Source: Chrysomallon squamiferum (taxonomy: Eukaryota > Animalia > Mollusca). From it: a stretch of DNA of 64,000 bases. Below are positions 1,347-55,307 of the stretch, one piece after another. The DNA lies in NCBI GenBank assembly GCA_012295275.1, contig CM022674.1:124001-188000 (forward strand), in the 5' to 3' direction. Position 1 is the first letter of the stretch; the number at the start of each line of letters is the position of its first letter. The notes under the pieces were generated by a model that was given only the letters and a program-made list of their open reading frames with translations, was not told where the DNA came from and ran no database searches. A program made the translations under genes and the position numbers.

Positions 1347-1968
1347 GGAGAAGAATTGTGAAGAGGTAGAAATATTGCAGACTTTATTTTCTAATGAGGT
1401 AAGTTGTAATGATTATAGAATGTCACGGTAAATAAATGTGATCTTTTTCTCTTTTCTTTTTGTCAATATTTACAGAAAGCTGTGTATGAAGAAGATGTAC
1501 TGAACATTGTTAAATTATTAAAATTGTAAATTTCATTTTAAATCCAGGTTTTATTATTGATGATTCATTTTTCTTGTTTCAGTTGAGTGTAGCTGAGTGT
1601 ATTAAAAGTTTATTTTCTTGTTTCAGTTGAGTGTAGCTGAGTATTAAAAGTTTATTTTCTTGTTTCAGTTGAGTGTAGCTGAGTATTAAAAGTTTATTTT
1701 CTTGTTTCAGTTGAGTGTAGCTGAGTATTAAAAGTTTATTTTCTTGTTTCAGTTGAGTGTAGCTGAGTGTATGCGTGTGTTAGAGCTGACTCAGTGGGAT
1801 GTACAAAAAGCTGTGAAATATGTGAAGCTCAAACAGCTGCTGAGTACTCAACTTGGAGATGTTCAACAATGCAAGGAGGCTTTAATCGCCTGCGCCTGGG
1901 ACGTCAGGCAGGCTGTGGAACACTTGGTTCGACACCCTGCACCTTGCCATGACGTTGTAGACGTTTGA
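1347..1968 (+). CDS. 3' end (last two coding exons) of an ACK/TNK2-family non-receptor tyrosine kinase, C-terminal UBA-like region
   Basis: Exon 1347-1398 (cttcag|..EKNCEEVEILQTLFSNE|gtaagt) joins in frame to 1753-1968 (LSVAECMRVLELTQWDVQKAVKYVKLKQLLSTQLGDVQQCKEALIACAWDVRQAVEHLV...*). This matches, from memory, the ACK1 C-terminal pattern EC..AL....W.V..A..YLK..QL......C...L....W....A...L. The kinase domain is outside the window, so ACK vs Ack-like is unresolved. Confidence 0.75.
1569..1770 (+). repeat. 5-copy 42-44 nt tandem repeat duplicating the splice acceptor of the last ACK-like exon
   Basis: TTTTCTTGTTTCAG|TTGAGTGTAGCTGAGT recurs with the AG ending at 1582, 1626, 1668, 1710 and 1752. 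Confidence 0.95.
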
Positions 1969-4900
1969 CTGACTTCATGTACAAACATACAGTTGCTATA
2001 TATAGGGGTTGATTCTAGGATTCAGAATGTCAGTTCATTGAAGAAAATAGTGTTTTTAATAACGGAAATGTTCTCAGAAATAACTAACGGAATGAATATT
2101 TAAATGGAGGAGATAATAGACCTTGAATTTGCATCCACATAAATTGCTCAAGTAACACAGAAAAAAAGAAAAGAAAACTTTTTGTTATTCCTAGATTATT
2201 TTTGTTCATTCTTTCAAAAACAAAACAATATTTAAAAAAGTTAATGTTCAAAGACTTTGTGTTACATTATTTTTTGACAAAACAAATAAGATTTAAAAAA
2301 AAATTATTGGACTTCGGATCACAAAGGGAAAGAGTACATCATACATCTACTGTTTGTTTTATTTAAAACTCTTTTTGTTCACTGAATTGTAGGATAAATT
2401 GCTGTTTACCAGTAGTGAGACAATGTTTTTTTTCTGATAAAGGAGAATTGTGGCTTGTTCTGTCTTGTGCTTGGAAAGTTAAAATGGCTGAAATGAAAAA
2501 TGGAAGTGAGTAGAGAAGCTTTTACACCAATGAAAAATGAAAACAGGAATATAAATATTCTTAGAATAAATACAGAAATGTATATTATATTAAAAAAAAT
2601 TGTTCTGTAAACTGAAATTGTATCCATAAGATCTGCTCTGAAGAACAAAATAAAATGTTTCTTTTTTTAAAGTGTTTTTTGCGTGTATAAAGAAAGAATA
2701 CATTATGTGTTTCATGGATGCATTTCTTGATGGAGATTATGACATGGTGACTTTACAACAGCGTCGATGTAGTTTATTATTTTAAAAAACAAAGCAAAGT
2801 AGAGTGGACTGAAAGAGAATTGACTTAGAAACTACCTCTTTTTAAACAGCGAAAACACACTTGATTTTTGTGGTTTACTCAGCCAAACTCCTAGCTACAG
2901 TCGGATGTTTCAAGAATGTAGGTTTAAATAAAAGATACACAACTAGTAAATTACCTCCTGTATTTCCACTACAAAGATGAAAATAATCTGTGAAATAATT
3001 CTGTCTAAGTTCATCTGTCATAGATGTTTCACTATGCTCAGCAGCTAGAAGGTTTCAAGAAAACTTCACTTTTCTAGAAGATAGGTATTTTCTGTACAGA
3101 AAAACAAAGATGGTGCCTACAGACTTTTAACAGTTTATATTTTGACTGTGTGACCAGCTGTTGGGCAGTTTTATAATTACTAATGATAGTTACAGTTATA
3201 CAACATTATAGAACATGAAGTCCATAAACCTATCTAATAGCACAGTGAAATGAAAACGCATACCTGATTACAAGAAGTAACTTTAGTTGAGTATGACTGT
3301 GTGAGAGAGAGCGCATGTGTGCACTAGCTCATTCATACTGAACCAAAAGTTATAGTATATGTTTCTTTTCCTTCAAGCTCAACAAAATTATCTTTTCCTG
3401 CTGCCAAATCAATGCTTTGTATAAAAAATAATGTAGTTAGCCAGTTTGTGATGCAGTTTACAAACATTACTTGTCACTGATGTTTATTTTAATTATTACT
3501 CAGTCTTCTGCTAGAGTGGATGATGATGATTTCACTGATGTCATCTTTATTAACTGCTTATTAGTGTACAAAAACTATTCTTCCCAACAGTTTCCAAGTA
3601 TTTCATGTTAATACACTTTTTTTTTTTGTTATATATATATATGTATATGCTGTGGATGTTGTATTTTAAAAAAAAAAAAAGTTTGCCAAGACTTTTCATC
3701 CACTCAGTTTGAAACATGTGCCAAGAACTTTGTTAAAATATTTACTTTTTATTTTATATTTTTTTCATTATTATTGTTAATATTATTTTTCCTGTCTTCG
3801 AGTTAAATGTTGTCATATAAAAGCAGATTATGTTTTAGTGCCTGTCTTTTGTTTTTATTTTTATTTTTAAATGTGCTATATATGTAATTTTGACTCACGT
3901 TAAGCTCATAGAATGTAATTACTTCAGTGAGTGTTAACTGGAATACAAGTATAATTTATCTATGAAATGTAAAACTGTGTTTAACTAGAGTGTTGTAAAA
4001 AGATGGTCAGATGTTAGAAAAGTCAGCTGAATCTCACTGTTAGACACCACCATTATGTGGCTGAATTTTCAAGGGAAAAAGAAATTCTGAGAAAATTGAA
4101 TATTAAGTTAACCTGTTTGTCTTTACTATTTGTACCTGATATACCATATATTATTATTATTATCATTTCTGTATTATTTATTTTGTTTTGGGGGTTTTTG
4201 TTGTTGCTTTTTTAAATAACATATGTTGAAATGTAAGCAGTTCATTGTAAAGGATATTATAAATTCAGAAAAATATTTTGTAAATAACAGCATAAAAGAT
4301 ATAACCATCATTACATATCAGCTCATAAGTTTAGAATATTTTTTTTAGCTGTGTACATTTGCAGAAAATTGAAACTGAGGTGAAAACAGTTGTAGATAGG
4401 TTTGATAGTTTTTCACAGAACAAATAATTTGAAAAAGAAATATTTAGTTTTGAGGTATTTTGATGTTTGAAATCTGCTACATACAACTTCACACACAAAT
4501 ATAACATTTTTGTCATTATCTACATTTTAGAAATAATTTCCATGTCTCTATAGTAATCAGAGTTATTAATATATTAGAACTGTTAATGAAAAGAGATCAT
4601 CATAATCTGTATCAGTGATTATGTGTAATTATAATCATTGGAAACTTAGACTGGTATAAACAGCATAGCTGTGACTTTCAAGTAGGTAATGATTTTTTTT
4701 TTATCTACAGCAGTTTATTATTAAGATTATTTTAATGTTAGTTGAACATAATAATACTCCTACATTCGTCAAAAAATAATTTTTTGAATTAAGTAAAAGA
4801 TTAATCCATACTGGTCACACAGCCATGAAGTCTTAGAGAAAACAGTGACAACCTTTATGTATATATTTGTTTTCTTTCTTTTGTTTAATTGCTCATGATT

Positions 4901-53800: not shown

Positions 53801-55307
53801 GATAACTTAGTTACAGTTGTATCTTTAAACAGCATAATTACCCACTGGTGTTTATTCCATATAAAAGTATTGAAGAAAAAGTAGATAACTTAGTTACAGT
53901 TGTATCTTTAAACAGCATAGTTACCCACTGTTGTTTATTCCATATAAAAGTATTGAAGAAAAAGTAGATAACTTAGTTATAGTTGTATCTTTAAACAGCA
54001 TAGTTACCCAGGCTGCCATTGTGTGCATGAATGGAGGCAATGACATGTTTATCAGTTGCTACAAGAAATCTTTTCCCACTGGAAGATGGTGACTGATCCC
54101 AGTACAGATGTTCAATCTTTCCTACATACGACTGCTTCCTATAATGATAAGAGAAATAACAGACAAAATAGACGTAACAGATATAACAGACATAATACTT
54201 TTTAATAGACATGGTAATAATAAATAATACAAGGAAAAAAAAAAGAATGAAATAATGTAAAATCATTTCATTAAAAATGCCTTTACAAAATTTTAACTGA
54301 TAATTTGGTAGAATGTTGCAGAAAGGAAACTTCTTATTACTGATTAATATAATGAAGTCATAAAGAGGATATGTGACAATTTCCCAAAACACGCAGAGCA
54401 GTTTTTCTTCACAGCCCCTTTTTCATTTCAATTGCTAGTTAAGTCTCTGGTAAAGAACTGCTTCCAAAATTGTCTTTCCTTGTTCTTTGCATTGTTATTT
54501 ACAAACCTGTCATAAATTTACTAATAATGTTCAGGCCTCTCATTATAAGGCAAATGAAGCATTTTTAAACTGCCATATCTTTCTTGTTAACTTAATGGTC
54601 ATAAAAAATGAGATCATAGTATCATTGGGAAGGTCTTTCTCATGGCTTCCAGCGATATCAAACTTATTAACACTGACTGACATTTAATGTTTTAGTCACA
54701 CACTACACAAAGCAATGGTTGTTGATTAAGAATCAGTAATGAACTCTGGGAAGCACACATCTTGCAACTACGCCAATCTAGTCTGTTTCATTATAAAATC
54801 TTCCCAGCTAATACATTTATGTGGCCCAGAGCTGGCATCATCAGGACCTGATATTTGAAATACATATGCTTGCTGCCTAAGCAGGGAATCTTTTACACAA
54901 AGTGACAAATGTAAATGTTGATCCAAAAGCAGCTTATTTTGGTTCTGCTAGCATTGTGCATATAAAAGAACAAAAGTCTGATATAAAACAATTTAATGAT
55001 TTTTTTTTTTACATTAAACTATAAAGAAGAAGAAGAGGAAAATACTTAGATTCATGATCGTTACTGTTAGTATTCCTAGTCTAGTGTAACTACTAATTGT
55101 AAGAAAGTAAAATTAATAAATTAACAATATTAATAAAACATGTATTGTACTTTATTCGAATGCAAATTATATACATATTAACATTATAATGTTTTGACGT
55201 ATCAAGGCTAATTACCAATCAAATTTTCCTGCTTGATCTTCATAAATGGCAGAGCTATTTAAAATGAAAAGCAGAAAACATACTACATACAACCACGTTG
55301 CCGCCAT
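35866..55307 (-). CDS. EMC1: ER membrane protein complex subunit 1, 25 exons, 985 aa
   Basis: Minus-strand exons 55216-55307, 54008-54138, 53285-53350, 52747-52849, 52447-52478, 51873-51963, 50709-50867, 50139-50247, 48998-49162, 48534-48605, 47820-47921, 47180-47273, 46553-46669, 45694-45749, 45004-45177, 44424-44588, 42156-42326, 41405-41527, 41055-41139, 40640-40762, 39955-40076, 39409-39619, 38811-38895, 37923-38071, 35866-36026 join in frame (2958 nt). Diagnostic motifs: signal peptide plus [97 protein letters not shown] helix, LNRAWK*. Confidence 0.96.
36126..37936 (-). repeat. 38/26-nt minisatellite (roughly 50 units) duplicating the donor of EMC1 exon 24
   Basis: Minus-strand unit GTATATTTGTGTTAG-CCTATGGTATAG-GTATGTTACTA; the true junction is ctAGCCTATGGTATAG|GTATGTTA at 37923/37922. 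Confidence 0.95.
42750..44406. repeat. 33-41-nt minisatellite CAGGTTGATAAAGAAACTAATTAGTGTGATGTAG(A/G)GTGATT, about 40 copies, EMC1 intron 16
   Basis: Directly visible; starts about 17 nt into the intron from the exon-16 donor (44423). Confidence 0.95.
47547..47698. repeat. 45-nt tandem repeat, about 3 copies, EMC1 intron 11
   Basis: CATGTCTCTGTTTTCTGGAACATTCTACATAAAGTAAATACACTC at 47547, 47592 and 47637. Confidence 0.9.
49165..49978 (-). repeat. 105-nt tandem repeat, about 8 copies, abutting the acceptor of EMC1 exon 9
   Basis: CACCACAGGTTTGACAT recurs every 105 nt (103 once) from 49182 to 49915; the unit includes the acceptor's pyrimidine tract. Confidence 0.95.
53420..54010 (-). repeat. 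83-nt tandem repeat, about 7 copies, including the donor of EMC1 exon 2
   Basis: The true junction ctgG|GTAACTATGCTGTTTAAAGATAC is echoed as gtgG|GTAA(T/C)TATGCT(G/A)TTTAAAGATAC in most units. Confidence 0.93.

Follow-up and report, generated by a model that had tools for sequence, protein, structure and literature searches.

Minisatellite arrays across exon-intron junctions in three genes of a Chrysomallon squamiferum genomic window

Tandem repeats whose units lie across exon-intron borders have been described in lancelets as mirages, which according to PMC3087553 occur at both borders, have units of 10-160 nucleotides (nt), are spliced normally and are unstable in length. They were found there in Adh3 and in the globin genes BflGb6 and BflGb9, with troponin C and PGBD5 being added by PMC3902484, and somatic instability has been reported at the Adh3 mirage. 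The authors of PMC3087553 regard mirages as possibly a general phenomenon in cephalochordates, leave the mechanism unclear and propose a model of exon and intron gain for them. In humans, the pseudo-donors of a 37-bp variable number tandem repeat (VNTR) in intron 7 of F7 are functional, yet the most upstream donor is used; that study (PMC1557585) also lists akin arrays in 6-16, CBS, LAMIN B2 and PDGF, of which 6-16 and CBS use two pseudo-sites. Some variable internal tandem repeats at the exon-intron boundaries of duplicated human genes have been reported to create new introns, with transcript support (PMC2812944), and a further source deals with repeats affecting splicing in general and has no bearing on array origin (PMC10078293). 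Here we describe junction-spanning arrays in a 64,000-nt stretch of the genome of the gastropod Chrysomallon squamiferum (assembly GCA_012295275.1, contig CM022674.1, positions 124,001 to 188,000), referred to as the window, and compare them with these systems.

Six minisatellite arrays in the 64 kb of the window were found to cross exon-intron junctions, five at donors and one at an acceptor, in three genes: an ACK-like gene, a predicted secreted-protein gene and EMC1. All six have the feature that defines a mirage, namely tandem units across an exon-intron boundary. The window contains no N, has about 30% G+C and was modelled by coordinates as four genes with a total of 45 introns; all four models have stop-free frames and AG/GT intron ends, the sole exception being a GC donor in intron 10 of the SLC6 gene. 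Minisatellites occupy 10,305 of the 64,000 nt and are present in 12 introns, a count that is identical with two threshold sets, and half of the 12 intronic arrays span a junction while the other six do not. The eight arrays that a first-pass annotation had placed at or beside junctions were all found where it placed them, and its copy counts for the six spanning arrays (5, 11, 3, 2, about 50 and about 6) were recounted as 5, 11, 3, 2, 43-52 and 6. The arrays it noted were all at or near junctions, and it overlooked four arrays that lie within introns clear of any junction as well as three arrays outside the gene models.

The acceptor array is the one for which sequencing runs provide additional evidence. 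Two coding exons (1347-1398 and 1753-1968, within 1347..1968, plus strand) are the last of a gene with UBA-type domains at its end, as indicated by domain matches and by spliced RNA contigs in both of two RNA runs; the domain evidence consists of UBA-type matches only, and ‘ACK-like’ is the label of the first-pass annotation. The array (1569..1768, plus strand) comprises 4.7 units of 42 nt with a first unit of 44 nt, includes 16 nt of exon and lies across the last acceptor. It presents five exact acceptor copies, the real site at 1753 and four decoys, and three of the decoys match the real acceptor exactly over 23 nt. The spliceosome does face near-identical decoys, as had been stated, in the same way as in F7 intron 7 and the lancelet mirages, and RNA of the ACK-like gene uses the exon-side site.

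The ACK-like region was contained in nine of the eleven sequencing runs listed, from three studies, and four runs were compared over positions 1337-2600, all as assembled contigs; this check covers the ACK-like array alone among the six junction arrays. In the genomic runs X1 and X5, which come from two studies, unit junctions of both types, 42 nt and 44 nt, are present as contigs, and therefore the array was not invented by the assembly, X1 or X5 being possibly itself source data of the window assembly. To this extent the ACK-like array is confirmed in sequencing data. The depth of the 42-nt loop contig is 0.7-1.3 times that of the unique flanks where the window predicts three times, which hints weakly at shorter alleles or fewer units in those samples, contig depth being no copy number. 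The two RNA runs, X8 and X9, belong to a single study and carry different unit types of the array, and in both of them the exon end at 1398 is joined to 1753, the last acceptor. No other joint was seen in the RNA contigs of these runs, contigs dropping rare paths, and gaps in their intron coverage were not counted as absence. Regular splicing is undisturbed at this array in two of two RNA runs.

Three of the five donor arrays belong to a gene (13446..17558, plus strand) that is predicted, from frame and splice signals, to encode a secreted basic protein of 255 amino acids in seven exons, the gene consisting of duplicated exon-intron cassettes of phase 0 that are rich in Arg, Lys, His and Asn. 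A homologue search with one exon found none, which is weak evidence, and a Pfam search with four exons gave no match. The first array (14167..14909, plus strand) consists of 11.1 units of 67 nt, each made of the last 24 nt of exon 2 and the first 43 nt of intron 2, and it holds 11 exact donor copies, the real one included. Two 70-nt arrays, each also with 24 nt of exon, lie across the exon-3 donor (15196..15408, plus strand, three units, intron 3) and the exon-5 donor (16481..16623, plus strand, two units, intron 5). The units of all arrays had been called unrelated, which does not hold for these three. Their 67- and 70-nt units align with one another with scores of 97-130 while any other unit pair scores at most 27, all three end at a common intronic breakpoint, the exon-5 array is a paralogue of the exon-3 array, and sequence variants are common to the arrays of paralogous cassettes. 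The aligned units, the common breakpoint and the 95% identity of exons 3 and 5 make one or two independent events the best count for the three arrays.

Two further observations concern this gene. Three of its introns have, at 36 nt, a donor-like site (14226, 15255 and 16540, plus strand) with a score equal to that of the real donor, and putative use of this site would add 12 in-frame codons. Intron 1 carries a lone degenerate copy (13569-13622, plus strand; 85% identical) of the cassette exon-end and donor region, apparently a dead cassette or a junction remnant.

The other two donor arrays lie in EMC1 (35866..55307, minus strand), which was modelled with 25 exons and 985 amino acids in an intact frame. 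Aligned over 986 columns, the model and an EMC1 of Gigantopelta aegis are 79.9% identical, and none of the six junctions examined falls at a gap; one exon searched by itself had Gigantopelta aegis as its best named match (97% over 70 amino acids), followed by other gastropods. When the EMC1 locus was sought in metagenome contigs, none of 597 pattern matches was confirmed. A mixed array with 38-nt units and a 26-nt sub-unit (36127..37937, minus strand) includes 15 nt of exon and lies across the exon-24 donor, of which it contains 43 exact copies over three exon and six intron nt or 52 over two and six, the real site included in both counts. Seven units of 83 nt (53426..54010, minus strand), with 3 nt of exon, lie across the exon-2 donor and hold six exact donor copies, again including the real one.

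Two more EMC1 arrays had been described as abutting a junction, and their positions stood. A 105-nt array of 7.8 units in intron 8 (49166..49983, minus strand) stops 3 nt short of the intron end, and a 37-41-nt array in intron 16 (42749..44407, minus strand) begins 17-40 nt past the donor. Neither contains copies of a real site: the acceptor-like sites of the 105-nt units are weaker (four scored 6.8-7.6 compared to 12.3 for the real acceptor) and none of eight is identical to the real acceptor, while scoring of the intron-16 array gave no donor-like and no acceptor-like site. Since both arrays fall short of the border and hold no copy identical to the real site, they are not mirages.

The likeness of the six spanning arrays to lancelet mirages (PMC3087553) extends to units spanning donor or acceptor borders, to unit sizes (38 with the 26-nt sub-unit, 42, 67, 70, 70 and 83 nt) within 10-160 nt, to the presence in several genes per genome and to normal splicing where examined, which here is the ACK-like array only. 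They differ in that the host is a gastropod mollusc and in that length instability is here only hinted at. The F7 VNTR (PMC1557585) likewise has its first unit across the donor, with 4 exon nt in F7 and 3 in EMC1 exon 2, followed by identical downstream pseudo-sites; it is unlike the present set in copy number (5-25 copies in the human set and up to about 50 here), and one of our arrays is on the acceptor side. As in F7, the exon-side donor is probably used in the donor arrays, judging from the intact frames and the EMC1 homology. The human boundary repeats of PMC2812944 are also of minisatellite size and lie in recently duplicated gene parts, comparable to the secreted-gene cassettes, whereas some of them make new introns and the copied sites here are all out of frame. 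No mollusc or gastropod report of mirage-type arrays was found in the literature searched, in which most subscription papers are missing. The repeat class itself is already published, as lancelet mirages and human F7-type repeats; the window extends this little-known class to a gastropod and shows the density that it can attain. Gene prediction and the mapping of splices from short reads can be led astray by arrays of this kind.

The ends of the units bear on how the arrays were founded. First- and last-base overlaps of 6, 3, 3, 3 and 2 nt were found for the five donor arrays and of 2 nt for a non-junction control. Short overlaps are what slippage or microhomology repair would leave when a tandem pair is formed. 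In the three arrays compared, two of which were sampled in part, units diverge by 0-3 mismatches with no clear edge pattern. When each array is collapsed to one unit, the host introns of the independent junction and abutting arrays are short, with length ranks of 2, 7, 11, 15 and 16 among the 45 introns; two further secreted-gene host introns rank 23 and 30.

The copied sites were also examined for their effect on the frame. None of the four decoy acceptors of the ACK-like array is in frame, and of the 118 donor-like sites that the five donor arrays contain three are, all of them the same site, which lies 36 nt inside the original secreted-gene intron and is no donor copy. Every copied site, if used, would lead to a stop or a frameshift (computed). 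A route to new exons, which the first-pass annotation had raised and which is a published hypothesis (PMC3087553), is not supported by these arrays: no new exon is evident because all copied sites break the frame. The same annotation described the arrays as growing into the intron while the exon stays intact. The frames are indeed intact, but the direction of growth is no independent evidence, because use of the exon-side copy by itself makes all other units intronic.

In our view these arrays are probably mirage-type minisatellites that arose from ordinary short duplications in a genome with many repeats and small introns, hit exon-intron borders largely by chance and were tolerated since the exon-side site is used. 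A stretch of 38-83 nt would first have been tandemly duplicated between matches of 2-6 nt by slippage or microhomology-type repair, such overlaps being seen in all five donor arrays. Given units of this size and introns that measure about 360-480 nt when collapsed, 12-30% of the surviving duplications would be expected to cross a border. The doublet would then have grown by unequal exchange like any minisatellite, and the three secreted-gene arrays, whose relatedness was observed, would have been multiplied along with the duplicated exon cassettes. As long as the exon-side site is used, extra copies would be intronic and near neutral; this use was observed for the ACK-like acceptor and is expected for the donors by analogy with F7.

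Whether chance suffices depends on the number of junctions hit. In the null, each array is collapsed to one unit and a founding duplication of the same length is placed anywhere except wholly inside an exon. For all arrays, 6 of 12 span a junction where 2.12 are expected (P 0.009); with the secreted-gene arrays counted once, the figures are 4 of 10 and 1.69 (P 0.069), or 5 of 10 when the 105-nt abutting array is added as spanning (P 0.024) and 4 of 11 when a 49-nt array at the right end of the window is added as non-spanning (P 0.095). With microsatellites masked, independent events give 4 of 10 where 2.04 are expected (P 0.123), or, if the abutting array is included, 5 of 10 (P 0.051). A null conditioned on the host intron, which was not made the main test as it conditions on the outcome, gives an excess that is not significant (P 0.06-0.43). 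The junction excess is about two-fold and borderline; it rests on ten independent events in a window selected for its striking look, and is too weak here to dismiss chance.

Several observations nonetheless weigh against the reading by chance and tolerance. All versions of the pooled-intron null give an excess, of 2.0- to 3.0-fold with P between 0.003 and 0.12, and several are nominally significant; masking of microsatellites leaves 6 of 12 (P 0.024) and 5 of 11 (P 0.056). Donors host five of the six junction arrays. Both acceptor-side arrays (1569-1768 and 49166-49983) have units holding a segment, of 12 nt or of 20-22 nt, that is absent from both flanks. Repeat-loop contigs are present in both RNA runs of the ACK-like array at 24% and 18% of the mRNA contig depth with no unique-intron contig; they could represent unspliced RNA, DNA or decoy use, and are compatible with some use of upstream acceptors. 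Read support, finally, covers one of the six junction arrays.

The excess could indicate a real mutational bias, in which short tandem duplications form or grow more readily at exon-intron borders than elsewhere, possibly through breaks or slippage at the chromatin or transcription boundaries of exons. Minisatellites would then be born at splice junctions at about twice the chance rate, mostly at donors, and mirages would reflect a duplication bias tied to exon borders. We hold this to be possible but doubtful. Apart from the excess in the pooled nulls, it is favoured by three more arrays that lie near a junction (two at 3 and 17-40 nt, one at 28 nt), and by the view in PMC3087553 of mirages as possibly general in cephalochordates with an unclear mechanism. 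The excess, which had earlier been ascribed either to such a local bias or to selection filtering random duplications, would not arise by the latter, since selection can only remove duplications and would not raise the junction rate above the intronic one; a true excess would therefore need a mutational or a detection bias. The claim of a local bias, and of enrichment over random placement, keeps its roughly two-fold excess on the scale of the window, but on the strict count 4 of 10 compares with 1.7-2.0 expected (P 0.07-0.12). Against a bias also speak the post hoc choice of the window, the small number of events, the P value of 0.095 with the 49-mer, the result conditioned on the host intron and the lack of a mechanistic signature; copying of the filler segments from the flanks was considered and rejected, as 1134 and 790 of 2000 shuffles give a match as good as the observed one. 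No literature on a genome-wide junction excess of tandem arrays was found by title or abstract. If a bias were real, the genome would be a large natural panel for the choice of the spliceosome among identical sites, with decoy use possibly measurable, for example as an ACK-like isoform without the UBA-type region. A genome-wide excess, if it held, would answer the question of mirage origin left in PMC3087553, selection alone being unable to create it.

Appreciable use of the decoys, tuning expression, is an improbable reading. Use of an upstream acceptor in the ACK-like gene would bring in a stop after 6-15 codons of the last exon (computed) and thus lead to a protein that has lost the UBA-type region. 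A stop in the last exon is likely to escape nonsense-mediated decay. The loop contigs in RNA, the three decoys with a 23-nt exact match to the real acceptor and the use of two pseudo-sites in the human 6-16 and CBS arrays (PMC1557585) fit such use. For decoy usage in RNA, which the first-pass annotation had proposed to measure, the ACK-like array alone gave data, and both runs join the last acceptor with no decoy joint among the contigs. The loop in X9 includes intron bases upstream of the 44-nt unit, the first one of this allele, which fits unspliced RNA or DNA better, and contigs lose rare paths, contig depth being a poor measure. The chance-and-tolerance reading is also preferred over assembly artefacts or arrays inflated by assembly, a very improbable alternative to which the low loop depth and the restriction of the read check to one array lend some colour, but which is contradicted by the unit junctions in contigs of two genomic runs from two studies, and by the 0-3 substitutions between units and the secreted-gene variants common to paralogous cassettes, which read-duplication errors would not give.

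The four arrays within introns and clear of any junction, used as controls, lie in the SLC6 gene and in EMC1. The SLC6 gene (19397-33704, plus strand), a sodium:neurotransmitter symporter gene that the first-pass annotation does not name, is complete with 15 exons and 646 amino acids according to frame, splice signals and a domain match; it carries a 21-nt array in intron 4 (25733..26653, plus strand), 199 nt from the donor, and a 60-nt array in intron 9 (30519..30911, plus strand), about 110 nt from the donor. EMC1 contains a 45-nt array in intron 11 (47547..47698, minus strand), 121 nt from the donor, and a degenerate 51-nt array in intron 19 (40791..40910, minus strand), 28 nt from the acceptor. 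Broken reading frames at 9170-9700 (plus strand) are a candidate remnant of a Penelope-like reverse transcriptase.

Three arrays outside the gene models, with units of 18, 37 and 49 nt, were kept out of the main count, the 18-nt one as intergenic and the other two because the frames at the right end of the window gave no gene to place them in. A Pfam search with eight of these frames gave no match above the curated cut-off, the only match being a sub-threshold one to RMP1 at 62990-63199. The 18-nt array (11124-12732, plus strand) has about 91 units and lies upstream of the secreted gene with no modelled exon nearby; in seven of its units there is a 9-mer that matches the ACK-like donor exactly. 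Most units of the 49-nt array (63552-64000, minus strand) contain a pyrimidine-rich AG motif, and the array stops about 25 nt short of a possible minus-strand acceptor near 63526 in a candidate host gene.

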